From positions 1 to 64,000 of the forward strand of contig NIVC01000176.1 of assembly GCA_002269645.1 (NCBI GenBank): DNA of 64,000 nucleotides. Direction: 5' to 3'. Positions within the stretch are counted from its first letter, which is position 1; each line of letters begins with the position of its first letter. A program made the position numbers and the translations under genes. Source of the DNA: Macrostomum lignano. Its lineage: Eukaryota. The notes under the pieces were generated by a model, which worked only from the letters and a program-made list of their open reading frames with translations, did no database searches and was not told the origin of the DNA. Shown in pieces: positions 1 to 19,880 of this stretch.

Positions 1-1
1 A

Positions 2-1152
2 ATTGATTGGACTGCTTACTATCATGACAAAAGCTATAGAGATGCTGAAAAGACGTCTTCAACTCCAGAGGAAGCCCTAGCAAAGAAGCATTATTGCTGA
101 TGAAAAAATGATAGCTGATTTAGATGCTATTCCAACCAGCGACTTGTCGGTAAAGGAGAGACTCATTAGAAATCTAGTAAAGCGTATTATCAATGCTAAA
201 GTTCGGTTTGGATTAGGAATTCATACTCACAACCCCAACAATTGTATAGACTGTCTAACAATTTATGGTAAGGGTCTTAGCTATGAAGATGCAGTAAAAT
301 TGCATAGGGAATACAGAAAGCCAAGAGTATTTAGAAAAATGATTCACTATGCAAAAGACACAATTTGGCATGCAGATATCATTATCCTACCGCCCGAAAG
401 AGGTTACAAATATGCTCTCACTATCATAGATGGTTTTACACGTTACGCCTGGGCAGTTCCTTTGAAAACAAAGACGGGAGCGGAAGTTGCAGAAGCTTTC
501 CAAAAAGTATTTAAGGAATCAGGAAGACGATCAGAGAGACTTTGTGTAGATGAAGGCAAGGAGTTTTATAATCAGCATATGTACAAGCTATACTCGTTTT
601 CAAAAGACAACATTAGAAAGAAGGATGAAAGGGGTGAATATATTAACAAGATGTTTCAATTTATGGCGAGTCAAGAATGCAATGATTGAGAGGTTCAATC
701 GTACTCTCACAAATAAACTCTGGTTTGAATTTGATCTACAGGGTAATCAGAAGTGGCTCCACACATTGCCAGCTATTGTTGAAAAATACAACAACACAAT
801 CCATTCTGAGATTCTGATAACTCCTTCAGAAGCATCTAAACATCCTGAGCGAGTACCAAAGCCAACTTTCGAGTATTCAAATGAGAAACCAAACTTCAAA
901 GTAGGTGACAAAGTTCATATCTATAGATATAAGGAGCACTTTGAAAAGGGTCGAAGAGGATATTGGAAAATTTCAGAAGTGTTTAGGATAAAGAAAATAG
1001 TTTACTCCAATCCCATAACCTACATTATTGAGGATGAGAATGGAGAAGAAATCATTGGATCATTTTACAAATCCCAGCTTCTACCAGCAAATTTTTCAAC
1101 TAAAAATGAGCGCCTATCGAACAAACTGCAAACGGGCGAAAGGTCAGATTGA
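2..1152 (+). CDS. PLA2-like domain in frame with retroviral-type (rve) integrase; 5'-partial, frameshifted near 91 and 650-675
   Basis: Frame from nt 2 reads IDWTAYYHDKSY (HDxxY PLA2 motif); after a 1-nt shift near 91 it continues ADEKM...NAKVRFGLG. Integrase triad follows: WHADII (D), CVDEGKEF (D), MIERFNRTL (E), then the Maverick-type tail PITYIIEDENGEEIIGSFYKSQL. Joins track ORFs 108..689 and 550..1152. Confidence 0.88.
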
Positions 1153-1528
1153 AACGTCTGATTCACAACTACTAGCTGATAAAGAGGGTGAAGGAATTGG
1201 TGATATGATCAGTGGTGTCACAAACTTTTTATCAAATCATGGAAGTAAAATTGTGAGTGGAGCTGATGCAATAGGTAAAACAGCTACCACAGCGAAGAAC
1301 ATATTCGATGCGAAGAAATCATACAGTGACATGTCTAAAGCAGGTGAGGAACTGGAATATATTAAAAAGAAACGTAGAGATAAAGAAGCAAAGAAAAGAA
1401 TGGAAGAAGAGCAACAGATAGCTTCTCAATCAAATAAGGCTATTCAAGATATTGTTAAAAAGGCTCTAGGAACAGCAGAACAGTCTCAAGTGTCTTTGAG
1501 ACAAGGCAATGGTTTGAAGAAATTCTGA
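1106..1528 (+). CDS. Small putative virion core/membrane-lytic protein (amphipathic helix after GEG site)
   Basis: ATG at 1106 in the TAAAAATG context shared by neighbouring genes. KEGEG is followed by IGDMISGVTNFLSNHGSKIV, a charged coiled coil and RQGNG. Confidence 0.7.
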   Translation: MSAYRTNCKRAKGQIETSDSQLLADKEGEGIGDMISGVTNFLSNHGSKIVSGADAIGKTATTAKNIFDAKKSYSDMSKAGEELEYIKKKRRDKEAKKRMEEEQQIASQSNKAIQDIVKKALGTAEQSQVSLRQGNGLKKF

Positions 1529-1536
1529 CCTTAAAA

Positions 1537-1965
1537 ATGAGCGAGAAAAACACTGAAGCAAGACTCAATCGATATGTTCGAGAGGGAAAACCAAGATATG
1601 TTACTGTAAATAAGCAAAAGCAATATCTTTCTAAAGAGAAGATTCGAGAATTGCAAGAGAAACAGAAAGAACATGAAGGTGGAATAATTCCTCTATTAGG
1701 CTTACTACCAGCAATATTGGGTGGTATCGGAGCAGCCTCCGGAGTTGGTACAATGATTGCAAAAAGTGTTAATACAGCCAACAATGCTAAGCATAATAAG
1801 ACAATAGAAAGCATTGAACGACAAAAACTAGAAGAGTTGAAAAAGGCTCAAGGGAGTGGAGTGTTAGTTGATGCGGCTAAAAGAGTCGAACAAGTACCCA
1901 GCGAAGCAGTCAAGTGGCTGCTAAAGACTTTAAAGTTGAAAAGGAGAAACAGGGTAATGGGATAA
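1537..1965 (+). CDS. Basic core protein precursor with adenovirus pX(mu)-like hydrophobic segment
   Basis: 142 aa, TAAAAATG start, basic N-terminus, then GGIIPLLGLLPAILGGIGAASGVG and AQGSG. Confidence 0.72.
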   Translation: MSEKNTEARLNRYVREGKPRYVTVNKQKQYLSKEKIRELQEKQKEHEGGIIPLLGLLPAILGGIGAASGVGTMIAKSVNTANNAKHNKTIESIERQKLEELKKAQGSGVLVDAAKRVEQVPSEAVKWLLKTLKLKRRNRVMG

Positions 1966-2008
1966 TTCTTAGACCTCACGAAGCTTAGTTGAAATTTCTC
2001 GTATAAAA

Positions 2009-3370
2009 ATGGAGAACAAAAAGGATATACTGAACCTATATGAGGACAAAACTTTTAGCTTTTTCAAAAAGAAAGAAGACTATATTAAGATTTCTCCAAC
2101 ACCAGTAGCACTAATAATCTCAATGTTGCAGGAGGTCAAATAGTTCATGAAGTCAATTCAACAGAGTCATACATTCTCATGTCAGAGGCATTCGGTTGTA
2201 TAAAATACTCAATAACACAACGAGATAACACCGACTTGAATACGAACATTACTCTAGAACATAATTGGCCTATGAGACTTTTCTCTCAACTCATAGTTGA
2301 CATTGGAGGAACAAAGAAAGTCTATAATGATCCTGGAGAGTATGACACAATCTTAAAGTCCGTAATGTACTCAAAATTGATGAATGAAGTTGGAGAAGCA
2401 TACGGATGGATTCCAGACACTGGAGATGCTGGGACTGTTTCTGATATAGCTCTAGCAAACAACGCAGATGCTGAAGCTGTGAGAACTGCAGCAATCGCTA
2501 TGAAAAATAGACTCAATAAGAAGGATTCGAATACTGGATACATTAGGAGGCTTGAAAATTATAACAATGTCACTAATGCTCCAAACAGAGGTGGAACAAT
2601 CAAACTATCATTAACACCCCTCATTGGGTTCCTTGATTGGCAGAAGATTAGCAAAGGAATTAAATATAAATTCACATGGACAAGAAAGACTAACGATGCT
2701 GAAATTTTCTTTGGAGCTGCCGGGACGGAAGCTAAGTTAACTATTAATAGCTTTGAGATTTGGATCCCTGCTATTACTTTGTCACCCAGTGCTGAAGCAG
2801 CTTTTCTAAAATCACTCAACAAGGACATTACAGTATCATTTCCAGAGAGGGTAACGGTTCCGCCACAACTCATTCAAGGAAGTCCATATACATGGAACAT
2901 AGCCAACATCTCCAATATGCCACTTGCAATCTTTGTAGCTTTCAAATATGACGTAAACAACCCATCATATATAGTTAATGATCACAAGTATGTGTCTTAC
3001 AAAACTGGAGCAAATGCAGTGAAAATAACCCAGCTTCAAGTCAGATTAAATCAGGTGATGTATCCGAATGATTATGTTGAAATTGATCCAGTAGCTCAAG
3101 ACATTCACAGAGCATATGAAATGTACGGACATCTGCAGCCGTTTCGGTGTAACTCCACCATTTAATAAACAAGACTTTCTAACCATCTATCCAATCTTTT
3201 GCTTTGATCTAACAGCTCAGGATGAGTTTCTTGTCAAGAGTGGAGTGAATATTCAATTATTTATCAAGAAGTCAACTAATGTTGAGCTGACTGCTTTTGC
3301 ACTAATTCTTGAACAAACAAAGAATGTAATAAAAGTTACCAGTGAATATCAAATGACCCGCGTCGAATAA
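2009..3370 (+). CDS. Major capsid protein (double jelly-roll, Polinton type); two frameshifts near 2105 and 3126
   Basis: Starts at TAAAAATG (2009, MENKKDILNLYED). One added G gives ISPTPGSTNNLNVAGGQ, joining ORF 2179..3165; a second shift joins 3116..3370 with the Polinton MCP C-terminal motif YPIFCFDL. Reconstructed length about 450 aa; lies next to the ATPase. Confidence 0.85.
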
Positions 3371-3391
3371 GGTCATTTTTTCTTTTTTTAA

Positions 3392-4165
3392 ATGCCCAAA
3401 GTAAAATTTCAGCATGATCCTATTTTCCCTAATCCTCTTTTATGTTGTATTATCGGCGCTACAAATACGGGTAAAACATATTTACTATTCCATATTCTTA
3501 CAAGTCCTGAAAAACTAGTTGACTTTAATGAGTTAGTTTTATATGTTCCCAGAGCATCTCAAATGGATCCAGAGTATCAGTTTCTAAAATATGGCTTTGA
3601 AAATGGTCTCCCACCTTCTCTTATCAACTCACTCTATCATGTCTACCAGGTGAGTGAGGATGCATCTCCTGAAGATATTAGACATATTTGTCGAGAGGCA
3701 GCCAACCCTGGTCGAGTGCAAAGCACATCAGAAAATTCAGAAGTAATAGAGAAAATTCCTGTCACTCTTTCCCATACTCCAAATGAAGAAATTTTTCATA
3801 ATGGACTAAAGACATGTGTGATATTGGACGATGTTTTGGGAGAGGCTAATCAAACATTTCAGGAAAGTCTGTTTCAGAGAGGCAGGCATGGAAACTGTTG
3901 TGGTTTTTATCTAGCTCAAAATTTTACCAAACTAGATCGCAATACTGTCAGGGAGAATACGACATGTTACATAATCTTTAAACAAAAAGATACAAACTTA
4001 AATCACATTGCTAGAAATATAGAAACGAATTATGAACCCGCTATATTCAAGGCTAAATGTAGAGAGGCTTGGAAAAAGAAGTATGGCTATATCTATATAA
4101 ATACAAGAGCTGATGAGGATGAGCAAGATTTGTATAAGGATGTTCTAACTAAAATCCCATTGTAA
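3392..4165 (+). CDS. A32-like genome packaging ATPase
   Basis: Walker A GATNTGKT, Walker B CVILDD, and RGRHGN...AQNF...RNTVREN typical of the FtsK/A32 family; intact 257 aa. Confidence 0.93.
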   Translation: MPKVKFQHDPIFPNPLLCCIIGATNTGKTYLLFHILTSPEKLVDFNELVLYVPRASQMDPEYQFLKYGFENGLPPSLINSLYHVYQVSEDASPEDIRHICREAANPGRVQSTSENSEVIEKIPVTLSHTPNEEIFHNGLKTCVILDDVLGEANQTFQESLFQRGRHGNCCGFYLAQNFTKLDRNTVRENTTCYIIFKQKDTNLNHIARNIETNYEPAIFKAKCREAWKKKYGYIYINTRADEDEQDLYKDVLTKIPL

Positions 4166-4167
4166 AA

Positions 4168-4899
4168 ATGACTAATGAATATATAAGAGAACTCATTAAT
4201 TTAGCAAAGCAGCGAGAAATGTACAAATCCAGAAATGATGCTCAACGCTATTTGAAAATTGGAGAAGAGAGTTTATATGCAAGAGTGGCTCCATTAGCTC
4301 AAAAACCTGTCACAGAAAAGCTCGATGAATTTATTGATGTCAATGCCAACCTTGTTGATAAACTTCAGAATCAAAAAGTTCCAGTTCCGCAATCAAGTAC
4401 ACCAAAAGGCCGATTTGAACCCCTAGAAGTATTTGACAAAATAATTGAAGAAATTGGAAAGATTCCAATAACTCAAAGACCAGCGCCTAGTATACGGATT
4501 CAAAAAACTGATGCTGGATATATATTTGGATCATCTGTAATAGATGTTGAATTCCATGAACAAGGTCGAGACATCATTGTCAACGAATTTCGAATGCCAT
4601 TTTCTGAAGATCTTGAAGAGTTGTTCAAAATGCCTAAAGTAACTGAAAATGGTGAAGAGCTGAAGCAATTCAAGATGCAAACATTGCAGGATTATGTTAA
4701 CATCATTGAACATTGTAAAAATCCAGCGGCCAAATCAAGTGGGAATTATAAGCAAGCAGTAAGGATATTGAAAGATAATCCACCAGGATATCGAGTAAAA
4801 CCGGGATCTGGACTCAGTGAAAGAGTGTTAACTTTATTAGCCGCCAAGGCAGAAGGACATAATAATGTTGATAAAGAGCTAGCAGAATTACTTGCTTAA
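4168..4899 (+). CDS. Conserved Polinton-type hypothetical (putative core) protein
   Basis: 243 aa, TAAAAATG start. N-terminal helix with QKPVTEKL; C-terminal GSGLSERVLTLLAAKAEGHN resembles the RLxLLxAxxxAGN helix I recall from Maverick ORFs. Confidence 0.65.
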   Translation: MTNEYIRELINLAKQREMYKSRNDAQRYLKIGEESLYARVAPLAQKPVTEKLDEFIDVNANLVDKLQNQKVPVPQSSTPKGRFEPLEVFDKIIEEIGKIPITQRPAPSIRIQKTDAGYIFGSSVIDVEFHEQGRDIIVNEFRMPFSEDLEELFKMPKVTENGEELKQFKMQTLQDYVNIIEHCKNPAAKSSGNYKQAVRILKDNPPGYRVKPGSGLSERVLTLLAAKAEGHNNVDKELAELLA

Positions 4900-4901
4900 A
4901 A

Positions 4902-5697
4902 ATGGAAAAAGAAATAGAAAAAGTCAACATCCTCTTGAGTAAAAAGTTTCAACGCACATTTGACTTCTTTTCAATTAAAAACCCATTTCGACAAACTCTA
5001 GGCACTCCTATAAATTTGTATGAAGATCGAGAATACGAAGCTGGTATAAAAAAGTTTGCAGTCTTTGATGCTATTAACAATATTGAAGGAGGCAATAATG
5101 AGTTGCGATACTCGAGGGATAGTGGTAGAACATGGAAAAAAATAAAGATTCAAGCGGGATCTTGGGAAGTTAAAAGTCTGTCAAGCGAGATTCAAAGATT
5201 GCTAACAGCTGCAAATGATTGGAAAGAGGGGGCTATTGTTTTCAGTGCAAGCCTAGACACGCGTAGAGTTGAGTTACGGTTAGCCACAGATTATCAAGTT
5301 GATTTCAGGGATGCACATTCCAATAACTTTAGAAGACTGTTGGGATTCAATTCGGAAGTGTATTTGAAACCATTTGAGAGAGCTCCAAATCCAGCTCGGA
5401 TAGACGGAGCTAGAAGTGCGATCATGGTTCGTTGTCTAAATATCAAAGGGGGTTTATCACTGATCCAGCTAATGGAAATCATTTAATTGATAAGCAAATA
5501 CTTCTTTCAATTCCATCGTTCTCTGTCCCAATGGGAAGTAAAATTATTCAAGAGCCGCAAATCCTGTGTACCTACCACTAACTACAAACATGTTGAGCAC
5601 ATTCGACTTTGTCATCGAAGATGAGTCTGGTGTTCTATACGACTTTGATGGCGAGGAAATATTTATAAATCTCACATACGACAAATATGAGTGTTAA
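4902..5697 (+). CDS. Minor capsid (penton, single jelly-roll) protein; frameshifts near 5452 and 5560
   Basis: ORF 4902..5486 (IKIQAGSWEV, RRLLGFN, AIMVRC). Two +1 corrections continue it as GGFITD...EPQNPVYLPL...IEDESGVLYDFDGEEIFINL to TAA at 5695-5697, matching the Polinton minor capsid C-terminus. Confidence 0.82.
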
Positions 5698-5699
5698 AA

Positions 5700-6131
5700 A
5701 TGAGCGAAGCTGAGACATGGAATGCATTTAAACAAAAGTTTGGGACTGACACTACGACTAATATTGATCTGATAAATTGGGCAAAATATCTCAAGTTAAA
5801 ACCATTTCGCTATGCCATGAGAGATGAAATTGTTGATTTACCACAGTATGGTTACTTTATGACAAATATTCACACTTCGAAAGAACGGGGTATACATCAT
5901 TCAGCTATATTTTCAGCTCCTGATAAGGTTTATTTTTTTGATTCCTATGCACTACCGCCCACACTGGAAATTATGGAAAAGTTTAATCACACAAAGAATA
6001 GAATATGTGGAGACATGGAAGAACAAATTCAAACTTTTGATAAGAAATATTGTGGTCAAATGTCGCTGTACTTTTTACACCGAATCGATAAAGGAGATAG
6101 CTATAACGAAATTTTGCAGCAATTAAAATGA
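5700..6131 (+). CDS. Adenain-like (Ulp1 fold) cysteine maturation protease
   Basis: Catalytic His (RGIHHSA), Asp (YFFDSYALPP) and Gln/Cys (QIQTFDKKYCGQMSLYFL) in the expected order. The ATG at 5700 (TAAAAATG) is preferred over the GTG at 5691. Confidence 0.92.
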   Translation: MSEAETWNAFKQKFGTDTTTNIDLINWAKYLKLKPFRYAMRDEIVDLPQYGYFMTNIHTSKERGIHHSAIFSAPDKVYFFDSYALPPTLEIMEKFNHTKNRICGDMEEQIQTFDKKYCGQMSLYFLHRIDKGDSYNEILQQLK

Positions 6132-7535
6132 GTTACAAGAATACTGCCAATCAATTTGGTTACTCGTCAAATTCAAATGATATAGCACCTGGAATAACAA
6201 TAGCGTTAGCTGATGATCGCTACATCAATGAAAATGAAGGATATAAGAGAGAGGAAATAGATAATTTATTGTTAGCAAAGAGAAATGTTTCAGACTCTTA
6301 TTCAAAGGAAGATAGTGACGCAATGAATATCACCATGCTACAATTAATTGACGATGCTCATGGGCGCGTAAACAATGTCTACACAAAAACCGAAACTGAC
6401 ACTAAGATGTATTCTAAAACTGAGATTGACACTAAGATGTATTCTAAAACTGAGATTGACACTAAGATGTATTCTAAAACTGAGATTGACACTTTGTTAG
6501 CAGAATGGCAAGGTACTGCGGGAGGTACAGAGAGTTCGAAATTAGTCAATATTCTTTCATTACTGACTTCAAACGCTTCCCATTCTGACATGAAAGTGAC
6601 CGCTTCTCATAACTCTTCAGCAGCATATCATGTTGCAGATTCAAACCCAGCTTCAGATTGGAGCAGTGCAGATGACTCAGACAAGTGGATACGATTTCAA
6701 TTTTTGAAAAGAGCTAGGAAAGTTGTAGAGATAAAGTTGGAAGGAGAGGTGTGGCCTGGTTGGTCTGTTAGTGTGAGCCTAAATGGAACAAACTGGACAC
6801 CTGTTGAACAAAGTGCACCCATTGAACTACGAAGGGCAATGCACATCTTAGGAAAAAAATACCCAATCCCTCATATTATTTCCATTATTTCTTAATTTTT
6901 CTGGTTCCGTAAAGCTTACAAAAGTTGAATTACTTGAGAGACAAACAGTGGTTAATGATTTAGTGTGGCCTATAGATAGACTTCAAGCTGTACCAAAGCT
7001 ATACGTAGACAATGCACTTGAATCAGTGGAGCTGCGACTAAGGCGGGGACTAGGTTTCAAATCTTATACAGGATATATTCCCTCACTAGCAACACGTCAA
7101 AACTATAGAGAAAGGGGTTTCAATGTAGCGTCATCAGGAGCATTTGAAACGTCAGATAATTGGGGTTATATAGTATCTAATTCAGAATGGGCATCGAGGA
7201 ATGAACCCAATTCTTACATTGAAGTACAACTTCCCGAGTCTATTCAAATTTGGAAATTCGGATTGAAAGGAACCAAAGCAGTAGGTAGTGAAATTATAAA
7301 AAATCAACCAAAAAGTTTTATTCTGAAAGGGAGCAATAACAAGAGAGACTTTAGGAATATTTTTTCTACCGAAAACGCTGGTTTAGTTCCTGGAGTCATG
7401 AAATATTTTGAAGTAGCTTCCACCGAAAAATTCTCTGTTTATAGAGTGCATATTAATTCAGCCACTGAAGGATCAACCGTTCTTATTGTTTCAGGCTTTC
7501 AACTTTATCCGATTTTAGACATAATCGCCACATAA
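6128..7535 (+). CDS. Putative fibre/receptor-binding protein with YSKTEID repeats and two discoidin (F5/8 type C)-like domains; frameshifted at 6825-6895
   Basis: Contains 10-aa repeats MYSKTEIDTK, discoidin-like motifs (SDWSS...WIRFQF...WSVSVSLNGTNWT; EWAS...YIEVQLPE...PKSFILKGSNN...FSVYRVHI) and a KLYVD fibre motif. Two +1 corrections join ORFs 6128..6895 and 6948..7535. Confidence 0.72.
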
Positions 7536-7537
7536 AA

Positions 7538-8278
7538 ATGAATGAAAAAAATGAACACATCTATCCTGTGGTTGAGCTGCATGAAGCAGATTTGAGGGAG
7601 CGGGACTATTTCAATCAGAGAAAGGGTGAAATCAAAGGCAGTATTGAATGCATTACTAAAGATCTTACAATTTATAGCAAAAAGGTAAAAAAGTACAAAC
7701 GGCAAAGTAGCAGGATAAATTGGATCAACATTGTGACAGGAAATGTAAGTCTCTTGGCTGCTACAGGAATTGGCATAGCAACATCGATACTGACATTGAA
7801 TCCCTTAGTTATTGGAGTAGTAATCGGGGCAATGAGTGGTTTTGAAGCTGTAAAATCCACGTCGTTGTTTGCAACTGTGAAAATTCATTGCCAAAAGCAG
7901 AAGGCAAAATACATTGTTCTCAGAGATCTGGCAAATCAATATAGAGAGAGATTGTATATTTACTCCCAAAAAGCAGTTGATGATTATAGATTAACTCTTG
8001 AAGAGGTTCAAGCAGCTGCTGCAATTTATTCAGAATACAGAGAAAAAAGAGATCAATTGTTAGACGCCTGTGTTGCGCCTGAAGAAGTTAACCATTCGGA
8101 AGTCGTTGATAAAATCCTCAAAGAGAGTAGACTTGGTCATTCAGCGAAGGAAAAAATTAAAAAGGAATTACTAGAAAAAGATCTGAGAGAAAAATTGGGT
8201 CTAGCTGATAAGCCAAAAGAGTACTCGGCAACACTCAATCTTCAATCAAATGCTCCAAGTGCACCTCCCTACAATTAA
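7538..8278 (+). CDS. Viral protein with hydrophobic helical hairpin and C-terminal PSAP motif
   Basis: 246 aa, TAAAAATG start; about 50-aa hydrophobic Gly/Ala-rich stretch between coiled coils; ends APSAPPYN. Confidence 0.75.
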   Translation: MNEKNEHIYPVVELHEADLRERDYFNQRKGEIKGSIECITKDLTIYSKKVKKYKRQSSRINWINIVTGNVSLLAATGIGIATSILTLNPLVIGVVIGAMSGFEAVKSTSLFATVKIHCQKQKAKYIVLRDLANQYRERLYIYSQKAVDDYRLTLEEVQAAAAIYSEYREKRDQLLDACVAPEEVNHSEVVDKILKESRLGHSAKEKIKKELLEKDLREKLGLADKPKEYSATLNLQSNAPSAPPYN

Positions 8279-8303
8279 TATTGTATAATTTTTTTTCTAG
8301 AAA

Positions 8304-8609
8304 ATGGCTGCAATAAAAGTTCTCCTAAATGCATACCAAGATGAAATAAAGCGCATTGATAGAGAAATACAAATAAATAACTTTAGGGAGGTGCGTACAC
8401 ATTGTGGAATAATAGAACCGGATTATGGATATATTGATAAATTAAGTGATCGCAAATGTTTTCTTGAAACTGCTATTGTTTTTGCAGAAGCATTTATTGA
8501 AGATGAAATCGACAAGTTAGTTAAAAAAATAAAAGAGATCAGGAAGTATGTTGAGTTTAATGATCAGCGCAAGAAACTTCTTAAGCAATTGAATTGTTTG
8601 GTTTTTTAA
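8304..8609 (+). CDS. Small helical hypothetical viral protein
   Basis: 101-aa ORF with AAAATG start, converging tail-to-tail with PolB (2-nt gap). Confidence 0.55.
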   Translation: MAAIKVLLNAYQDEIKRIDREIQINNFREVRTHCGIIEPDYGYIDKLSDRKCFLETAIVFAEAFIEDEIDKLVKKIKEIRKYVEFNDQRKKLLKQLNCLVF

Positions 8610-8611
8610 AC

Positions 8612-11600
8612 TTATTTGAATCCATGAGGATGTGTTATAATTCCATTGGATTCAATGTATCTTTTGTCATCGAAAGGACTAATAGCCTTCTTATTTTGTT
8701 CTATTAAAGTCATGTTATGCTTGTCTGATCTAAGGCTATACACTTTCCTATAGACTGGTTCGTTATAATCAAGTAGTATATTTCTATAGTCATCATATTG
8801 TACATGATGCTTCACTGTTGACTTTGAGATTCCCTTTAATTTTTTCTCTTCCTTCCCTTCCTTTTGAGTGCTGACATAAACTGTTTTAAATGAATATGCT
8901 TTCGATCTTAGAGCGGTTACTTCTGTCATTATGCAATCATATTTTGCCAATTCATCCTTGAATGTTCCCAGCTTTCCACAATTATTCATATCATGTAAAT
9001 CAATCGGAAAATTTTTAGTATACAGCGACAAATCGAAATGCTCCTTCATCTGAGCAATGTCTTTATAAATATTTTCTGTCTTTATATGAAGAATGAATGA
9101 GTCGGTGTCAGAGGTAACAATCTCAACATTATCCCCCCATTTGGACTTGAAAACTTTGTAAAATGTTTCATACATATGCAATTTCGAGAGATCCAGAATT
9201 GCTTGTCCAGCGTATGTTGGCTTTGTTCCAAGAGGGATATTCTTAGGTCGCTGGTGAATGCAAATTAGATTTTCATTGAAGATTTTGAAGTCTATGAAAT
9301 CTGGCTTGGATATTATCTTAGATATCTCATCCTCACTTGTCAGCAACTCAAATCGCTTTCTCTTTTTAACATCCTCCATTGTCTTGCCAAAGATGCTTAC
9401 ATTAAGCATTTTGAACTGATTGTCTTCGAACTCAATTTTTGCTTCTTTTGCCTTCTTTCTTTCTATCGTATTAAACTCGATATACTCCTTTAACCATGGC
9501 TTTTCATTGAATGAAATCGTCCTATGTACTTTTGTCACTTTCAAGCCCATCTCTTCATAGAATCGCAATAGCTTATGATGTACGATATATTTTGTTTTAT
9601 TTTTTAAATTAAGGATCAATTTAGGAACTTTTCCAATCTTTTTCATTTCGACTTCTAGACATCCTTTCTGATATTCACTCAATTCACTTTCTGACACAGT
9701 TGTACTTTCAGGTGCTAATGGGAAGGCATACGTTTTCTTTTTTGATTCTTTTGTATATTCAAGATCACATTCAACAAGACAGCCCCGTCCTTCAGGAGGA
9801 TTTTTATAATAGTTGGAATCAGCTTCCCATTTAAAGTCAGAAAAAGGAAGGGGTTCCAACATACTATAACCATAGAGATTTGTACAATCAACGTAAAGTA
9901 AGTAGGAAGTTGGTTTTTCTAAATCATAGCCTGGAAGATAAGGATTATTTGCCTTTACATATCGTGACCCTAGAACTCCGCTAAATCCACCTCTTATTCC
10001 ACTATCAATCATATGAATCATATCGATATCCGCCAGCAAGTCTAACTCAACTTTACTTTTCTTCAACCCAGCATTCCAACTCAATCCTGGTGCTGAGAAG
10101 CATCTGGCTGGATCAATCTCAAAGTGTTTCAGGAAGAATGTTCTATAGCGTTCGAATACATCTGCTAATAATAGAACGTCAACCTTAAGATACAGCATCA
10201 TATAATCCTCCAAATTCTTACAATTAAAAGTTTTCCACATTTGTTTTGCAAAATCATATTCATCTGAAGAAATGTCTTCACCTTTCAACCTCGAGTAAAA
10301 CTCTTTCAATGGTGGTAACTCAGTTTCTGCTAATCTTCCAAAGCTTCTGATATACTCATATGGGAATACACCCTTGCGCTTAACATATTGAAAATCGCTG
10401 TCGTTTTTAAAGTATTTCTTTGTTATGATGAAGTCTTCATCCTTCAGGGACTTTGCGCAGATATCCAGCGAGGAAGCCAAGAACCTGTATGAATCTAGGA
10501 ACCTCAGTACTACTTTGTTACATCCAAACTCGAGAGAAATGTACTCTTCAGAAGTTTTAGATAGTGGAGGAAATAATTTATCCTCCATGGTCTCTTTGCT
10601 CTTTAAGTGTGTCACTAAGAAGTGAAAGTCATAGTGGGATCCATTCTGGAAGTAGATTGGGATTACTCGCTTCTTACTCTCGAGAGCATTGCAGGATTTA
10701 CAGGCAGCCCCTCTATATTTGCCACTATAGTGACAATGTTCTCTTACCTTACCTAGCTTAAGTGTAAAGTCATTTTTACAATTCGCACATTTTTCAGCCC
10801 TGTAAAACTCTTTCCATTGTTGCTTTGTGATCTTATATTTACTTATATTATTGCTCTTGTTCAGACATTTTTTGCACCAAGATTCTATAGTAACTTTACT
10901 GTCAATTTCCTTCACATGCACCTTCATATCTGGAACCATATCAAACTCCTCGCATATGTAGCATTGTTTAGCCTTACAGTAAGAAGCCTCCTCTTGCGCT
11001 GTCAAATTATGATTAATATGCTTAGGCTCCTTCAGACCATTCTTAATTTGTTGATAAATTTCAACCATTCTATCAACATATTTTTCCTTGGCATCTGTGC
11101 CACAATATCCTTCATACTTCGATTTAATTACCTCGGGTAACTCAGAATGGATATAAAAACCGTAAGCTATTGCGTTCTGATTTGCTACTTTTAGAGTATA
11201 TGACTCTTTGTCTAAAATCTTAGTGAAGCTTTTACTTTGTGCTTCAATGGGTTCAGTTGTTGCTTCAAAGTCAGCATAGATAGCGATGGGTAGCTTTAGT
11301 TTGAATATATGATTCTTAAATTTCAGCTTCGATTCTTCCTTAGGTAATTTATAAAGACCGGGTGCATTTTTACCGCACAACCTTGAGTGCTCGGCCAACA
11401 CGTTTTCACTTGTGTAAACAGTCATGCATGTTCTGCATAAAAATGACTTGTGATTTACACGCTTTCCAGTTTGTTTTGAAACTAATGTTGTAAGATTTTT
11501 TATCAGACAATAATGAGTCTTACCATCTTCCTCCAGGTATAGTAAATCTACTACATAAGTTCGTTGATTATGAGGTGAGACATAGAGATGTTGTAGTGTA

Positions 11601-12436
11601 TCTGGGAATTTACCTTCATAATACAGCACATTAACAGCAAACTCTTCATTTAGTCTTTCAAACTTTTTTATATCTTTTATTCTCATGGGGAATTGGATAT
11701 CGGTGAGATTAAGTTCTTTTTCATATGGTTTATATTTTGACACTCGATAACCATCTTTATTTTGTGGATGTTTAACAGCTAATACACACCAGAGGAAGCA
11801 TTTCTCATCATCATTCTGAATGTTAAGAATTGATCGACATTTTTTAATTTCATTGTTAGTAAAGAAGGATCCTCCCTGAATGCTAGAAACCTTGGCAACT
11901 CTGATGTAGATAGATTTTATCTGCACAAAGACATTATCTGATCCCTTCTCACAGAACTCATCAATGAACTTTTCCAATGTCTCCTGTCTTTCGCTAAGGG
12001 CAGTGTCATACTGTGAATCTGACTGAATATTGTAGAATCCACTTTCATTGTCATAGACTGTGAATGGAGGAATGTCTTCGTTAAAATTCTTTTTGAATTC
12101 TAGTTCAAAATGCAAGTTGAACTTACTCCGTCCACCATCTCTAACTTTCTCTAACACTGCTTTAATTGCATCTTCATACTGAATAAAAACCTTTGTTATA
12201 TAACCTTCATTAACATTCCTAATGACATACTCTGAAATTTCTGACTTCTTATTATACTTCTCTCTAAAGGATTTATGTAGTATTATTTCATCACCAATCT
12301 GCGGAGCTGCCACTTCATCTTCTTTGGACTCCGCTATAGGCTCATTATCTGTGTGCTTTTGCTGCTGACGCCGAAACCGCTCAGCTTGAATGTATTGTTC
12401 AAATTCTTCATCACTCATCTTTCTGAGTTGTTCCAT
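8612..12436 (-). CDS. pPolB: Protein-primed family B DNA polymerase with N-terminal terminal-protein/vOTU region
   Basis: Intact 1274 aa. ExoI IYADFE, ExoII FQNGSHYDFHFL, ExoIII YLKVDVLLLADVF; polymerase motifs YVDCTNLYG, KMLNVSIFGK, TSDTDSF; endonuclease VII-like Zn insert (EHCHYSGKYRGAACKSCN). Confidence 0.97.
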   Translation of the reverse strand: MEQLRKMSDEEFEQYIQAERFRRQQQKHTDNEPIAESKEDEVAAPQIGDEIILHKSFREKYNKKSEISEYVIRNVNEGYITKVFIQYEDAIKAVLEKVRDGGRSKFNLHFELEFKKNFNEDIPPFTVYDNESGFYNIQSDSQYDTALSERQETLEKFIDEFCEKGSDNVFVQIKSIYIRVAKVSSIQGGSFFTNNEIKKCRSILNIQNDDEKCFLWCVLAVKHPQNKDGYRVSKYKPYEKELNLTDIQFPMRIKDIKKFERLNEEFAVNVLYYEGKFPDTLQHLYVSPHNQRTYVVDLLYLEEDGKTHYCLIKNLTTLVSKQTGKRVNHKSFLCRTCMTVYTSENVLAEHSRLCGKNAPGLYKLPKEESKLKFKNHIFKLKLPIAIYADFEATTEPIEAQSKSFTKILDKESYTLKVANQNAIAYGFYIHSELPEVIKSKYEGYCGTDAKEKYVDRMVEIYQQIKNGLKEPKHINHNLTAQEEASYCKAKQCYICEEFDMVPDMKVHVKEIDSKVTIESWCKKCLNKSNNISKYKITKQQWKEFYRAEKCANCKNDFTLKLGKVREHCHYSGKYRGAACKSCNALESKKRVIPIYFQNGSHYDFHFLVTHLKSKETMEDKLFPPLSKTSEEYISLEFGCNKVVLRFLDSYRFLASSLDICAKSLKDEDFIITKKYFKNDSDFQYVKRKGVFPYEYIRSFGRLAETELPPLKEFYSRLKGEDISSDEYDFAKQMWKTFNCKNLEDYMMLYLKVDVLLLADVFERYRTFFLKHFEIDPARCFSAPGLSWNAGLKKSKVELDLLADIDMIHMIDSGIRGGFSGVLGSRYVKANNPYLPGYDLEKPTSYLLYVDCTNLYGYSMLEPLPFSDFKWEADSNYYKNPPEGRGCLVECDLEYTKESKKKTYAFPLAPESTTVSESELSEYQKGCLEVEMKKIGKVPKLILNLKNKTKYIVHHKLLRFYEEMGLKVTKVHRTISFNEKPWLKEYIEFNTIERKKAKEAKIEFEDNQFKMLNVSIFGKTMEDVKKRKRFELLTSEDEISKIISKPDFIDFKIFNENLICIHQRPKNIPLGTKPTYAGQAILDLSKLHMYETFYKVFKSKWGDNVEIVTSDTDSFILHIKTENIYKDIAQMKEHFDLSLYTKNFPIDLHDMNNCGKLGTFKDELAKYDCIMTEVTALRSKAYSFKTVYVSTQKEGKEEKKLKGISKSTVKHHVQYDDYRNILLDYNEPVYRKVYSLRSDKHNMTLIEQNKKAISPFDDKRYIESNGIITHPHGFK

Positions 12437-12545
12437 TTTTTATAAAATAAATTTAGCAGGAAAATTATGTAATGACGTTATAAATTTATTGTGGCATCCA
12501 CAGGATTAAGCAATTAGAAATGTATAAGCGATATTACAATAGGCA

Positions 12546-12771
12546 GAAAAAGAACCAGATACTGCAGTATTCGATGTGAAAAAGCAACGAGCAAAAAAGA
12601 ACCAGATACTGCAGTATTCGATGTGAAAAAGCAACGAGCAAAAAAGAACCAGATACTGCAGTATTCGATGTGAAAAAGCAACGAGCAAAAAAGAACCAGA
12701 TACTGCAGTATTCGATGTGAAAAAGCAACGAGCAAAAAAGAACCAGATACTGCAGTATTCGATGTGAAAAA
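12546..12771. repeat. Five near-perfect 47-bp tandem repeats, each with a 12-bp palindrome ATACTGCAGTAT
   Basis: Palindromes start at 12559, 12606, 12653, 12700 and 12747; the array lies just upstream of the PolB start. Confidence 0.95.
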
Positions 12772-12832
12772 GAATAGTCAGCATAATGAGAGTCAGATGT
12801 TATGATTCACAACGCGCGCAATAAGATTTTCA

Positions 12833-13468
12833 TCAGATCAGAAGTGCATCTTCCTCCTCTTCCTCCAGCATCTCCAGGGCTTTCTCAGCGTACTTGATTA
12901 TAGAACGTAGGCGAAACAGTGAGATGCCACAACGCCACAGAATTGGATGTGCTGTGCTTAGACGAGCCACTCGGACTAAATAGTTCCCCCACGCGGACTT
13001 AAAGCGTAGTCTAGACAAAAATACTTTATACTCCTCGTCACTCAATGAAAGCTTCATTCTTATTAATATCTGACCAGACTTAATTCCATACTGCAAGCCC
13101 CGGCACTGTAGCTCGTTTATCATTTTATCAATGGAATTAAGTTCTGTAATTGCATCCTGAAATTGATACTCTCCGTCCATAAATTCATTAATCTCTCCCG
13201 GCTCTTGATGCTCCATCGAATCCCGCAGTATTTTAGCAGCTTCTGCTATTCGTTCCTTTGTCTTGTCCACTCTCTCCAATCTACCTCGAAAAGTTGGAAT
13301 AGCAAACTTCTTCCTATTAAATTTTCTAGCAACCTTGTTATATTCTCCTATCCATTTCTTACAATGCTTTAAATCCCCACTACAAAAAATCTCCTTGATA
13401 AGACTATCGAGGTCGGATTCGAATGATGCCATTGCTGCCTCCATACGGGATTCTAAAATGTAGGGCAT
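12833..13468 (-). CDS. Viral hypothetical protein, possible DUF3102-like helical DNA-binding domain
   Basis: 211 aa with viral base composition; segment GQILIRMKLSLSDEEYKVFLSRLRFKSAWGNYLVRVARL; acidic tail. Confidence 0.6.
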   Translation of the reverse strand: MPYILESRMEAAMASFESDLDSLIKEIFCSGDLKHCKKWIGEYNKVARKFNRKKFAIPTFRGRLERVDKTKERIAEAAKILRDSMEHQEPGEINEFMDGEYQFQDAITELNSIDKMINELQCRGLQYGIKSGQILIRMKLSLSDEEYKVFLSRLRFKSAWGNYLVRVARLSTAHPILWRCGISLFRLRSIIKYAEKALEMLEEEEEDALLI

Positions 13469-14181
13469 TATAACTATTTAGTATCAAAATCAACACAAGA
13501 ACAAAACTCTTATTTCTTACCTTTTCGTTGTTGCTGAGTTGTGTGATTTATATGTTCACTCTGTTTGCTTTAGTCTGTCTGATAAACGTGTGTTGTATTG
13601 CTTCCAAAACTAAAGCGGGTTTTTATCAAGCCACCTAAGCGACTTCTTACATGCGCACTGAGTCATGAAAATAGAAAAAAAACCAGCATGGCCGCTGCTT
13701 TAGAGTTATGGTTTATGAGGTGCTCAATTCCTGCTGCAGCATGCTGATATTCGAAACCTATTGATAAAGGAACAATAAATTCATGTTGACTCAACTGCTA
13801 AACTGTTAGGGTTAGGTAAGTTGCTTTGCTTCATTCTTGATGCGAAAAGCTAGAAAGAATGTTGAGTCATTCTGCTTTAAAGAAAAAAGGAACATAGTTT
13901 CTTTCAGTGTGCATTGTGCAGTGCGATGCCATGCATCTCAAGTAACTACAATTCTGACTCATGTGGATAGAATTTTTTCTGCATCTGGCATGAGCCTGCA
14001 AAGTTGCATTCCATTCACCCGGTGTCGCTTTCTCATTGGTTGTCATCAATGAGACACCAATGAGAATTGAGGTTATGCGCTGCTTTTGTATTTTCACATA
14101 ATATTAATACAGGAATGAATTTGGAAAGATGGCTGATAATTCTCTCCAAATTCATTGCAACAATAAAAAGCTTTAATAGAC

Positions 14182-14745
14182 ATGCCATCCCAAAAGGAAC
14201 TTCGCAAGAGATATAGGGATCATCGAAAGGAATTCGAACTCACAAAGCAAAAGATTCGAAGGCTCATGCCATTAACTATATTTGCAGATCTAGGTTCTGA
14301 GAGACTAATCAATAAGCTACAAGGTTTAGATACATTCAAGTCCTTTACGGAGGAGGATAAGCTCCTGAAGCTTCTGAAGGAAAATGTGGCAAAAAGAAAA
14401 AGCATGCAAGCTATTGCACTATCCTATCAAAACCAAGCTCAAGCCATGCAAGCGATTGGTGATTTGGATACTGAAGATGATAGCCTTCCACCACCCTATG
14501 AGATCGCTGCTGACAACCGAGGCACTGCTGACATCCAAGGCACTGCTGACATCCAAGGCGCTGCTGACAACCGAGGCACTGCTGACATCCAAGGCGCTGC
14601 TGACAACCGAGGCACTGCTGACATCCAAGGCACTGCTGACAACCGAGGCACTGCTGACATCCAAGGCACTGCTGACAACCGAGGCACTGCTGACATCCAA
14701 GGCACTGCTGACAACCGAGGCACTGCTGCTTCATCAGCTAACTAA
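14182..14745 (+). CDS. Viral hypothetical protein with PPPY motif and 6-aa repeat tail
   Basis: 187 aa; coiled-coil N-terminus, LPPPYE, then about 12 in-frame 18-bp units encoding AD(NR/IQ)G(T/A) at 14506-14725. Confidence 0.62.
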   Translation: MPSQKELRKRYRDHRKEFELTKQKIRRLMPLTIFADLGSERLINKLQGLDTFKSFTEEDKLLKLLKENVAKRKSMQAIALSYQNQAQAMQAIGDLDTEDDSLPPPYEIAADNRGTADIQGTADIQGAADNRGTADIQGAADNRGTADIQGTADNRGTADIQGTADNRGTADIQGTADNRGTAASSAN

Positions 14746-15060
14746 AACTAGATGATTGATGACTTGTGGCGATCATGGACTAATTTGTCAATATTAATAA
14801 ATTGCTCTAATGTTTTAATTTTGTTCTTCATAGGCGTTTGAGGACTTTTTGTTACTGTTTTAATAATCACTACTTTAATATTTAAAATACAAAACCATTA
14901 TTATTATTTGCATAAGTTATGCGAAGTGTATCCTAAAAACGGATTTTAAGGAGCTGTTATCTTTTTTAATTTTTTATAATTAATTTTCATTATAGCAATT
15001 TTGATTTACGTGAATTAGATTTAACTTTGTGTAATGGAAGCTGTCCTTGACCAATTTTTA

Positions 15061-15829
15061 GAGTTCCTGCGAGAGCCTATTTGACCATACGCTTCACTCA
15101 GTGTGGGTTTCGCACGACGTTAAAGCTGAGTCACAATATAAAAATTGCTTTGAGGAGAATTTCTCCTGCTATTTGTTCCATTTTTAAGATACATAATTTA
15201 GAAAAGGGTTAGTGAAATCGTCCGTAGGTAGGGTCGCGAGAGCATTGTTCGTTTGTAACTTGCGTGGCCCACTTCATGTCTTTTTTTACAGCTAGATAGA
15301 GGGTGAACACAAAAGATTTGCACGAGCCACTCCTATTGGATGCCAAAACCAAACACTTTTTGGCAGAAATTTTGGCAAAAATTTTGGTTTTGGCAGAAAT
15401 TTTGGCAGCCAATAGAAATGTTCAGTGCTGCGGTTATGTATAGTTAGTTTGGTGAGTTCCTGCGAGAGCCTATTTGACCATACGCTTCACTCAGTGTGGG
15501 TTTCGCACGACGTTAAAGCTGAGTCACAATATAAAAATTGCTTTGAGGAGAATTTCTCCTGCTATTTGTTCCATTTTTAAGATACATAATTTAGAAAAGG
15601 GTTAGTGAAATCGTCCGTAGGTAGGGTCGCGAGAGCATTGTTCGTTTGTAACTTGCGTGGCCCACTTCATGTCTTTTTTTACAGCTAGATAGAGGGTGAA
15701 CACAAAAGATTTGCACGAGCCACTCCTATTGGATGCCAAAACCAAACACTTTTTGGCAGAAATTTTGGCAAAAATTTTGGTTTTGGCAGAAATTTTGGCA
15801 GCCAATAGAAATGTTGAGTGCTGCGGTTA
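15061..15829. repeat. Two near-identical direct repeats of about 376 bp (period 393 bp)
   Basis: Copies at 15061-15436 and 15454-15829; the identical spurious ORFs 15209..15412 and 15602..15805 confirm the 393-bp offset. Confidence 0.93.
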
Positions 15830-16348
15830 GTGCTCTAGTAGTCGAGTATGCATGCCACGAAAAATTTAAATTAGCGCTCCATGTTCTTGAATGTCTTCTA
15901 TTATCTTTAAGTACAAATCTAGAACAGCATTAAAGCCATTTCAAAGCCTCGGGACAAAGCGAATGTGCAGGAGCAAATTATTGACTTTTGTAAAAGCATT
16001 GTATGCCTCGAGTGGACAATTTTTATGCATAGATGGTAGCTGACTGATCGTTAAAAGCAAAGCTAGTAAGATTGGCTTATTGAAGGGCGTTATGCAATGG
16101 GAGAAAAGACTATTATTAAATTTGATGCTAGTTTTGAAATGATGAAACCTGAAAATAGGTTATTTTAACCCACGAATCAAAAATTTCTTGTGGTTTTACT
16201 CACGAAATCGCGCAAAAAGCAATTTTTCGAAACTTTTGAAAAATCACTAAAATCACTGTTTTCAGACAATTTTCACCTGTTTTTAGTCGATTTTTATCTG
16301 TTTTTTGTGATTTTTCAAAATGGGTTGCGCTCAAACCTACTTTTCCTA

Positions 16349-16570
16349 TACTACTTCCCACAAATATCCCAAAATGCCATTGAAATCCCACAAATATCCC
16401 AAAATCCCATTAAAATCCCACAAATATCCCAAAATGCCATTGAAATCCCACAAATATCCCAAAATCCCATTAAAATCCCACAAATATCCCAAAATGCCAT
16501 TGAAATCCCACAAATATCCCAAAATGCCATTGAAATCCCGCAAATATCCCAAATTGCCATTGAAATCCTA
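16349..16570. repeat. 30-bp intronic minisatellite
   Basis: About 7 copies of cacaaatatcccaaaatgccattgaaatcc. Confidence 0.9.
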
Positions 16571-16588
16571 CAAAAAAAACTGACTCAC

Positions 16589-17101
16589 CAAGTTGACAAT
16601 CATATCCCACTGGCCGCCATCTTCAGCCGGATTGTGCAGCAGATGCTGCCACAGCCGGCCCTCGAGCGGCTCGCCCCGCATAGCGCAATCCAGATAGCAG
16701 TGCAGGAAGTAGTAGCCCCTCTCCAGCTTGTCCCAGAAGAACAGGTGACTCTGCGACAGCTCCAGCTCGGCCAGTCCCAGCTGCTTGGCCAGCGGGATTC
16801 GAACCAGATTCAAAGCGGCGAACAGCCAGCAGCGCCCGCTGCGCTTCTGATCGGTGACCGGCTTGATTTCGGCGGCGCTGTAGGCGAAGGCGCTGGTGCT
16901 GCTGAGCTGGTCAACCAGCCGACGGTCCAGAGCTACGTCGAACAGCTTATGCCGCTGGGTGGCCAGCTCGGACAGTTGCAGCTGACCGCTGGCCGAGAAT
17001 TGCGACTCCAGCTGGGCCAGCAGGTGGTTGGGAATGCCGGAGCATGATGGAGCGGCGTTTGACGACATGCTGTTGATTAGACTGTTGCTAGGGCAGCTCA
17101 T
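16589..17101 (-). CDS. BLMH: Bleomycin hydrolase (peptidase C1B), first coding exon
   Basis: VTDQKRSGRCWLFAALN (catalytic Cys), LSQSHLFFWDKLER, EDGGQWDMIVNL; donor TTG|GTGAGT at 16588. No downstream exon recognised in the window. Confidence 0.92.
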
Positions 17102-17226
17102 GAAGGTGAAGCGTAGCTTAACTTCAAGGCTTTGTATTTATACTTGGCGTTGTACTTTAGAACTCCAAAAATCTATCTCTGTATCTGTCCATGATTTCTA
17201 AAGTCCATTTCAAAACAATGGTATGA

Positions 17227-18262
17227 AGGTGAGAGAATCACTGATGTGACCTGAAGGTATGAGAATCACTGATGTGACCTGAAGGTATGAGAATCACTGA
17301 TGTGACCTGAAGGCATGAGAATCACTGATGTGACCTGAAGGTATGAGAATCACTGATGTGACCTGAAGGTATGAGAATCACTGATGTGACCTGAAGGTAT
17401 GAGAATCACTGATGTGACCTGAAGGCATGAGAATCACTGATGTGACCTGAAGGTATGAGAATCACTGATGTGACCTGAAGGTATGAGAATCACTGATGTG
17501 ACCTGAAGGTATGAGAATCACTGATGTGACCTGAAGGTATGAGAATCACTGATGTGACCTGAAGGTATGAGAATCACTGATGTGACCTGAAGGCATGAGA
17601 ATCACTGATGAGACCTGAAGGTGAGAATCACTGATGTGACCTGAATGTATGAGAATCACTGATGTGACCTAAAGGTATGAGAATCACTGATGTGACCTGA
17701 AGTGGAGAATCACTGATGTGACCTAAAGGTATGAGAATCACTGATGTGACCTGAAGGCATGAGAATCACTGATGTGACCTAAAGGTATGAGAATCACTGA
17801 TGTGACCTGAAGGCATGAGAATCACTGATGTGACCTGAAGGTATGAGAATCACTGATGTGACCTGAAGGCATGAGAATCACTGATGTGACCTGAAGGTAT
17901 GAGAATCACTGATGTGACCTGAAGGTATGAGAATCACTGATGTGACCTGAAGGTATGAGAATCACTGATGTGACCTGAAGGTATGAGAATCACTGATGTG
18001 ACCTGAAGGTATGAGAATCACTGATGTGACCTGAAGGTACGAGAATCACTGATGTGACCTGAAGGTATGAGAATCACTGATGTGACCTGAAGTGGAGAAT
18101 CACTGATGTGACCTGAAGTGGAGAATCACTGATGTGACCTGAAGTGGAGAATCAATGATGTGACCTGAAGGTGAGAATCACTGATGTGACCTGAAGGTAT
18201 GAGAATCACTGATGTGACCTGAAGTGGAGAATCACTGATGTGACCTGAAGGTGAGAATCACT
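17227..18262. repeat. 28-bp minisatellite with 26-bp variants
   Basis: Unit gaaggtatgagaatcactgatgtgacct repeated over about 1 kb. Confidence 0.95.
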
Positions 18263-19298
18263 GTGCCTTGAAGATGACATTAGAATAATATCGAAGTCTT
18301 AAAGACCAAACTAAAAATTCAAAACAATTCCTTGCCTCAACGAAGTGTCGCAGGGGGGGGGATAATCGGAACAAGAACTTAATCAAAATACTTCAAGTAG
18401 CTTATAAAAATAGAATGACGAGTAGGAATGTACTATACAGGCTATCAAACTTCGATAAAAGTCGCATTTGTCCGCAAAGAATAGTGATTTTACAATGATT
18501 CAATTGATATCGATTTGAGACTTGAGAATAATTTTAGATTATTAGCGGAACGGTGCTAAGCTACTTAGAGTAAGAATAAAGCAAATTTTCTTATTATATA
18601 GCCAAACAAAAACAAAAAGTAGACACAAATTAAACAAACAATTTATATTATGCAAACATCAGCAACTACTTACAACTATTTCATAAGTAGTATGTGATTA
18701 ATAACAAAAAACACGCAATTACTTCAATTAGTGAACTATTGTAGGAATTTTTCCTTATTGTGTGTCACACCAAGGCCAACAGGAGAAAATGCGTAGAAAG
18801 TTTTAAAAAAGTATAGTCTGAATGTTAGAGAAAACATTTTAGCAGTCTATGCGATTAAAAACATTACAGGAAAGACTTCCATGTTTATAAAGACGTTCAT
18901 ATGGAATTTACAGGCTGGTAGTTACGCAGGATCAAAAACAGAGTAAAAAATGCTTCTAAAAGTGAATCTCACTCGACTAGAATACAAATATAGTGTCACA
19001 ATGAGTAAAAATGGCAAATTAATACTAATTATACACCTATATGAGTACTAAGGCTATTTGTTATCAGAGCATAATAAGAACTAATATGCCCTATTCTATA
19101 ACAGTACATTGCAAAACTACAACTATTTCGCTAACAGACTGCTTTGCTTTGTTCTGCGCGGGCTATTTAGGTCAAATAGCGTCAGTTTTATTGCAAGTTA
19201 CTAAACCAACACAGTATATCCGAGGGTTTCGTTCGCAGAAGGAAAGGAAAAGGGGAGAGAGAAGAGGGGGATGGGGTAGGAGAGGGGGAGGAGGGTAA

Positions 19299-19880
19299 GT
19301 GGGGAGGAGGGCCTGGCTGTGTCATCGACTCGCGCATCAAAGCGTGGATCAGGACCCAGCACCGCTCGACTTGGGCGAACTGCACCACCTGCAGGCAATC
19401 CAGAGGCGCTGTCCCTCAGCCCTCTCACCAGCTCCGGAAGCTCCTCTTGCGCCTCTCGCGCAGAGACATCCGGGCTGCCACCATGACCCTCTCTGGTCAC
19501 GGCTGCTTCTCTAGGCACCAGTACCTGCAGGGCAACGCCACCAACGCCATCTGCAGTTTCTGCAACTCAGGTGACGAAACCGCTGAGCATTTCGTCAGCA
19601 TCTGTCCCGACTTTACGCGAGCCAGACTCACTTACCTCGGGCCACACACATCTATTACTGAAGCGTGCAAACCCGAAAACTTTAATCAGCTCATGCGCTA
19701 CCTTCGGGCCACCCGCAGGGCTGAACTCTCCTTTCCAGAGACACTGGGGGACCTCCCTGGGCGGCGCCAACCCTTCGTCTATAGCGACGCGTCGGCCGTT
19801 CAGGGATTAGCGGAATGAGCGTTCGCGCCTTCTTGCTGTCCCCCCCCCGGGAGAGCCCTGCAGCTAAGTAAGTAAGTAAG
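19299..19880 (+). mobile_element. 5'-truncated non-LTR retrotransposon (I/Loa/R1-like ORF2 C-terminus) with (TAAG)n tail
   Basis: One frame reads IKAWIRTQHRSTWANCTTCRQSR...LLLRLSRRDIRAATMTLSGHGCFSRH...CSFCNSGDETAEHFVSICP (CCHC knuckle), stop at 19818, short 3' UTR, then taagtaagtaagtaag. Confidence 0.85.

Follow-up and report, generated by a model that had tools for sequence, protein, structure and literature searches.

A predicted protease-matured internal virion protein with a pVI-like layout in Polintons of Macrostomum lignano

The gene at positions 1106-1528 (+) of the window, by which is meant the whole 64,000-nucleotide stretch of Macrostomum lignano contig NIVC01000176.1 that was analysed, encodes a 140-residue protein (P0001) that is best explained as an internal virion protein of a Polinton/Maverick element, matured by proteolysis and bearing an amphipathic helix likely to aid membrane crossing. 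This overall explanation is held with moderate confidence. Cleavage at both predicted sites by the element's own protease is its best supported part and is very probable, and membrane activity of the helix is predicted with a confidence that barely tips in its favour. Lysis is less sure than cleavage because the neighbouring pX-like protein has a cationic helix of its own between GxG sites. A sequence-only reading of this DNA had proposed an analogue of adenovirus protein VI (pVI); the feature is real and the general idea right, but the family link to pVI was overstated, and it is by analogy that the protein may work like pVI.

The target gene and its element

The target begins with a pro-peptide (residues 1-29; 1106-1192) whose length varies across the family, and the first predicted cleavage site, KEGE|G, spans 1181-1195. 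An amphipathic helix with a net charge of -1 to 0 and without Trp follows (residues 30-51; 1193-1258), then a Gly/Ala-rich helix that passes into a charged one bearing a KKKRR patch (residues 52-122; 1259-1471), and finally the second predicted site, RQGN|G, with its five-residue tail GLKKF (1499-1525). Translation of the ORF bore out both sites as originally described, with KEGE|G at residues 26-30, then GIGDMISGVTNFLSNHGSKIV, and RQGN|GLKKF at the C-terminus. The start at 1106 lies in an AAAATG context, as most gene starts in the element do; an alternative ATG at 1034, without that context, was rejected. The AlphaFold model is all-helical (helices 32-42 and 46-122) and of low confidence (mean pLDDT 55.5).

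At least 40 full-length copies of the target with an identity of at least 94% were found in this genome (150 scored of 205 candidates), and a partial database protein labelled Macrostomum lignano is 100% identical to it. The gene is under purifying selection, with a pN/pS of 0.13 in the target's own family (family 1) over 11 colinear copies, a value that becomes 0.54 with three frameshifted copies added and leaves out five of the 19 family-1 stretches, in which the start pattern was unread. The corresponding values were 0.19 in family 2 (codons 1-85; 19 distinct of 20 copies) and 0.13 in family 3 (16 distinct copies). Contigs from four sequencing runs of four studies cover the ORF; the runs are guessed to be RNA but may be DNA, and no weight is placed on them here. 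Pfam gave no meaningful family for the target, only SAD_SRA-type matches on the charged helix that were below the cut-off for P0001; a PDB sequence search with family profile A1 gave two chance matches and no pVI, and an ESM Atlas search gave unnamed clusters only, with recognition below threshold.

The Polinton, a high-copy element, occupies the first 13.5 kb of the window, whose start is the end of the contig and lies inside the element; no terminal inverted repeats were found in window positions 1-20000. Its plus-strand genes begin with an rve integrase (108-1152; Pfam E=1.5e-10) that is split over two frames here. The target lies directly upstream of a gene for a core protein like adenovirus pX (1537-1965), which is followed by the double jelly-roll (DJR) major capsid gene (2009-3370; PF21738, E=2.3e-10), an A32-like packaging ATPase (3392-4165; Pox_A32, E=6.9e-6), a conserved Polinton ORF that we take to be PZ-like (4168-4899), with one GxG[ILVFM] site kept in three families, and a maturation protease of clan CE, adenain/Ulp1-like (5700-6131). 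The integrase, the capsid gene and the gene next to it are broken in this copy, and the target is intact. A 1274-residue ORF on the minus strand (8612-12436) carries family-B polymerase motifs read by eye; Pfam matched only an endonuclease VII-like insert there (E=9.9e-8) and no polymerase family. The ORF after the protease (6128-6895 and onward) combines repeats of 11 residues with an F5/8 type C domain (Pfam E=2.3e-6), and is a candidate fibre or receptor-binding protein. A further ORF (7538-8278) has two hydrophobic segments, a weak SLATT_1 match (E=0.027) and counterparts in families 2 and 3.

Conservation across three Polinton families

Homologue searches gave 18 relatives, and the family alignment (A4) has 19 rows; counts on 20 below are those rows plus the family-3 protein. 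A second alignment (A9) omits three members without the C-terminal site, together with P0004. Within this genome the gene occurs in three families of Polintons. The family-3 protein matched family profile A2 at 96.9% and the family-2 protein at 59.7%, the latter being linked through P0019 (92.2% against the same profile), and each of the two had at least 150 scored matches in the genome. The gene lies between the integrase and the pX-like gene in family 1, upstream of the pX-like gene in family 3, and between the ATPase and the PZ-like gene in family 2. Searches of metagenome and viral contigs with profile A1 or the capsid protein found no related loci, and the homologues outside this genome are therefore without gene context.

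The dual-site precursor layout that had been read from the single sequence proved to be a family trait. The N-terminal site is kept in 20/20 proteins (19/19 rows of A4 and the family-3 protein) and stands directly before the amphipathic helix in every one, and the last GxG lies exactly five residues from the C-terminus in 17/20 (16/19 rows and the family-3 protein). The three rows in which the C-terminal site is absent are P0009, P0012 and P0014, which are possibly truncated. G28, G30 and D33 are invariant in both A4 and A9, and G57 is likewise invariant in the family. The linkers beside both sites differ in length, and some relatives have one to three extra GxG sites within the pro-peptide. 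The family-3 tail is again GLKKF, at 25% overall identity to the target.

The GxG sites and the protease

Two GxG[ILVFM] motifs within the target are modestly rare by chance (P=0.013), and the sites are regarded as real because they are conserved across the family, rather than for their rarity in one protein. On the sequence counts, the motif is element-wide and not specific to a pVI-like protein: ten ORFs for target, pX-like, PZ-like and integrase proteins contain 22 (shuffles: mean 3.6, at most 9) and 11 capsid and enzyme ORFs contain three (shuffle mean 2.7), the ORFs coming from three families and having been grouped after the motif was seen. The motif is absent from the capsid proteins in families 1 and 3 and present in the small core proteins. 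Two GxG[IL] motifs of the forms xFGLGI and xxGxGL occur in the N-terminal extension of the integrase in families 1 and 3 (108-290 in the window; L203:96-1079 (-) and L213:866-1912 (-) elsewhere in the genome). Their conservation suggests that the integrase may be packaged and processed by the element's protease.

With K and R at P4, the two target sites depart from the consensus for adenain, (M/L/I)xGG|x or (M/L/I)xGx|G (10.1101/341131), which has no match in the protein. Cuts at GG|X and GY|G are made by the related protease of mavirus (PMC6048507), and the target sites fit a GG|X / GX|G rule of this kind. As described in the sections of that paper covered here, the mavirus substrates are cut at GG|X or GX|G sites without a rule for P4, like the cleavage predicted for the target; their sites lie in the major capsid C-terminus and in MV13, unlike the small-core-protein sites of the present element (PMC6048507).

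According to its structure model (143 residues, pLDDT 82), the ORF at 5700-6131 has a clan-CE, adenain-like fold. The model matches the adenovirus protease (Z 9.6, rmsd 3.2, 123 residues aligned) and ASFV pS273R (Z 9.9, rmsd 3.4, 127 aligned), as well as poxvirus I7L and SENPs, and H66, D81, Q111 and C118 are invariant in five protease copies from the three families. Its alignment with the adenovirus protease takes in only residues 1-151 of the 201 in that enzyme. In families 1 and 3 the protease also has a cysteine, C103, eight residues before the oxyanion Gln. This is presumably near the position of the cofactor-binding Cys104 of adenain.

A complex prediction for the protease and target residues 108-140 gave a weak pass (0.46, best control 0.02), with at least 52% of contacts shared between runs and a partner pLDDT of at least 41. 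Passes at a score of 0.60 or under comprised five of 78 solved complexes and all four of the mismatched pairs that passed. Similarity to solved protease complexes may account for the pass; as a prediction it gives no interface and does not tell substrate from cofactor.

The amphipathic helix and what it may do

The helix noted behind the first site was confirmed. For the 18-mer beginning at G30 the hydrophobic moment is 0.49, a value that 0.05% of 2000 shuffles of its residues attained, and I31, M34, I35, V38, L42 and I49 share one face. Homologues keep both the helix and the GxG sites, with helix moments of 0.42-0.55 (median 0.49) compared with 0.54 in pVI. The chemistry of the helix differs from that of pVI: the median charge is 0 (range -1 to +1) against +1 to +2, Trp is found in 0/19 family rows against 34/34 pVIs, an invariant Asp is present, and the lipid-binding discriminant (D>0.68) was passed by 2/20 members against 34/34 pVIs. 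The discriminant was calculated with what we take to be the HeliQuest formula.

In the preferred explanation the protein would be packaged inside the capsid, beneath the capsomers, with the pro-peptide holding it there and shielding the helix until maturation. The clan-CE protease of the element would then cut both GxG sites, and the N-terminal amphipathic helix so freed would engage the host membrane during entry, as that of pVI does. The tail would more likely be an anchor removed by cleavage than a protease cofactor, a role that is unlikely for it.

A less probable alternative is that the target is a protease-matured cement or scaffold protein, the helix of which packs on capsomers or on its own copies, rupture being left to the pX-like helix or to another gene. 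The neutral, Trp-free helix with its invariant Asp would suit this role, as would the wide distribution of GxG motifs in the element, with up to six in one pX-like protein. The neighbouring protein, a real pX homologue by profile comparison (hhalign against 14 pX sequences: 53% for the family-1 copy and 93.6% for its family-3 counterpart), has between its GxG sites (HEGG|II and further ones) a cationic amphipathic helix (moment 0.51-0.60, charge +2) that could be an alternative lytic candidate and could fit lysis better than the target helix. Against a block of the pVI profile discussed below, that helix scores 13.7 and the target 14.8. A polar face rich in Gly, Ser and Asn, however, can bind membranes without charge, which tells against the cement or scaffold role. 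So does the fact that the target helix begins precisely at the P1' residue of such a conserved site, which is also where the helix of pVI begins (10.1101/857581). Cupiennins with the same start motif, by eye, are mostly cationic and have been called membrane-active by prediction (PMC8502044, in the portions covered).

Three observations concern the pX-like gene itself. Compared with the majority of the copies sampled, the one in the window carries a frameshift at the 3' end of this gene. The family-3 protein has two pX-like hydrophobic segments and five to six GxG-hydrophobic repeats (L239:1922-2881; L249:492-1487). In one of 24 open family-3 copies (L252; G000:C151:436588-439995) the target and the pX-like gene are in one frame, as in the fused LO6 of adomaviruses; this may be peculiar to that copy or an artefact of assembly.

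Comparison with adenovirus pVI

Likeness to pVI was assessed against 34 adenoviruses of several genera, with whole-profile runs on 18, 21 and 34 pVIs. What held of the proposed pVI-like protein is the dual-site layout, the helix, the fixed tail, the clan-CE protease and the pX neighbour; what did not is homology and the helix chemistry. Profile-profile comparison, suggested earlier as a check, gave no significant match: the family profile reached 0.2-6% probability against whole pVI profiles, most runs being at about 1% or less with shifting registers. As controls, mastadenovirus pVI matched that of other genera at 99.4% and the neighbouring protein matched pX at 53-94%. On these sequence and profile comparisons the target is not detectably related to pVI. 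With a family alignment of so little depth (Neff about 2.8), remote kinship is conceivable, and we regard common ancestry of the two as possible but doubtful.

The motif resemblance on which the pVI proposal had partly rested, SGxxNF...NxGSK, did not survive as a family feature. SGxxNF occurs in 1/19 family rows and 4/34 pVIs, NxGS[KR] in 10/19 and 12/34, and the single-pair alignment of the target with HAdV pVI (E=0.013) needs a gap of three residues. Nor is the tail of the pVIc cofactor type, as had been suggested: it is five residues long with Cys in 0/19 rows, against 11 residues in 33/34 pVIs and Cys in 34/34. PPxY is found in 0/19 family rows against 12/34 pVIs. Pfam MCPVI (PF02993) matched 0/14 members among the first 25 of 29 families listed, and no Polinton locus in this genome.

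In layout the two proteins are alike in having a pro-peptide of about 30 residues, a site, an amphipathic helix at P1', a C-terminal GxG site with a tail of fixed length, and pX and major capsid genes adjoining. They are unlike in that pVI has a cationic helix with Trp, an 11-residue tail with Cys, and M, L or I at P4, whereas the target helix is neutral and Trp-free. The gene order is target-pX-capsid here and pX-pVI-hexon in adenovirus. Further background on pVI was taken from the covered portion of PMC8310329.

That the target is a true distant homologue of pVI, with the pentapeptide activating the Polinton protease as pVIc activates adenain, is improbable. It would account for the fixed tail length (5 in 17/20 members; 11 in 33/34 pVIs), the adjacent pX homologue and the weak pass in complex prediction. 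It would also fit one profile run in which the helices aligned near-register with the cleavage site (6%, P=0.006, 0/60 shuffles), and a hand-picked 40-residue block at the site that matched pVI at 14.6% (P=0.0018) and was beaten by 0/200 plain and 0/200 pattern-keeping shuffles. Moderate HHpred matches to pVI have moreover been reported for adomavirus LO6, and Alpha LO6 clusters with Cupiennin (Welch et al., 10.1101/341131). The block, however, was chosen after the fact and is eight residues out of register with the site, and its signal comes mainly from the 12 closer members: scored singly, 11 of these lie at 14-17 and the twelfth at 11, whereas the eight distant members, at 6.4-9.9, are at background level (maximum 14.2 over 167 windows). 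The mostly very low profile scores in changing registers, the lack of MCPVI matches, the tail without Cys and the protease model confined to residues 1-151 of 201 stand against this reading as well.

A broader picture, which we consider unlikely, is that the ancestor of pVI is to be found in Polintons. That protein would be processed at both ends, its uncharged membrane helix would be triggered by acid (the Asp being invariant and a His present in family 1), and its fixed pentapeptide tail would regulate a minimal 143-residue protease without a disulfide. A single GxG code in the element would then serve the maturation of four virion proteins, among them an integrase packaged and activated in the particle.

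Least probable of all is a DNA-condensing core protein like pVII, matured at both ends and using the helix as an oligomerisation surface, since the mature part has a net charge of only +5 and the KKKRR patch is missing in families 2 and 3 and in P0015, P0017 and P0018, despite the presence of that patch in the long helix of the target, the long basic tails seen by eye in published Cupiennins (PMC11071296, supplement entries covered) and the processing of pVII by the adenovirus protease (10.1101/857581).

Relation to published Cupiennin and Macc proteins

Predicted membrane-active proteins of adintoviruses have been named Cupiennin, GasderminX and PLA2X (Starrett et al., PMC8502044), and the term 'Macc', for membrane-active capsid core, has been introduced with adenovirus VI and X as its canonical examples (Buck et al., PMC11071296 / 10.1101/2024.03.25.586562). 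The naming key of the latter lists unsubmitted Macrostomum adintoviruses (PMC11071296). Adomavirus LO6 was proposed as a pVI-pX fusion and found to be cleaved in virions, and pVI itself fell outside the Cupiennin cluster at E 1e-2 (Welch et al., 10.1101/341131). Compared with LO6, an adenain-cleaved core protein in which pVI-like and pX-like parts are proposed to be fused, the present element has two adjacent genes (10.1101/341131). PW and PM are conserved Maverick ORFs, the function of PM being uncertain (Barreat and Katzourakis, PMC8097293); by gene position we take Cupiennin to be probably PW. The covered part of PMC11161782 has nothing on such proteins.

The best reading is that the target is a divergent variant of the Cupiennin/Macc class, a likeness judged by eye. 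As with members of that class, its small ORF belongs to the virion module of a Polinton that also encodes a clan-CE protease. Some 26 Cupiennin entries of the supplement covered, inspected by eye, share with it a short pro-peptide, often two GxG or GG sites, a G[IL]Gx[IL]F-type amphipathic helix (GGGIGDIL in one entry), a second helix rich in Gly and Ala and, often, a further GxG close to the C-terminus, within a virion-gene module of Polintons. They differ in their mostly cationic helices and long Arg/Lys tails, compared with the neutral helix, invariant Asp and fixed five-residue tail of the target, and most of the entries lie between penton and hexon, where the target gene does not. Homologue searches with the target gave no named Cupiennin match, the family motifs were not found in the Buck supplement entries covered, which are a part of the whole, and no Pfam cupiennin family was among the listed matches. 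A motif scan for Cupiennin-type genes returned 18 loci, all unrelated and of phage.

The class, its likeness to pVI and the idea of a pVI-like membrane-active core protein are thus already published, and since the class was proposed before, the gain here is in detail and testability and not in a new concept. In the covered portions of the related literature there was no fixed pentapeptide tail, no neutral helix and no cleavage map spanning the element. No paper naming both 'polinton' and 'pVI' was found, and an annotation of the target gene may exist in supplements outside those covered. For studies of the entry of non-enveloped Polinton particles and of the substrates of their protease, the target family offers a short, assayable set of predicted substrates and two candidate lytic helices, drawn from young, selected copies in an animal genome. 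If cleavage and lysis are both true, the entry-and-maturation logic of adenovirus pVI and pX would be common to Polintons.

This genome is home to three or more distinct Polinton families that differ in gene order and have many young copies, and a degraded fourth type is present at L037. Beyond the right part of the element in the window, a host ORF fragment at 16568-17101 (-) carries a QxRSGRCW motif, which presumably resembles that of bleomycin hydrolase-type peptidases.
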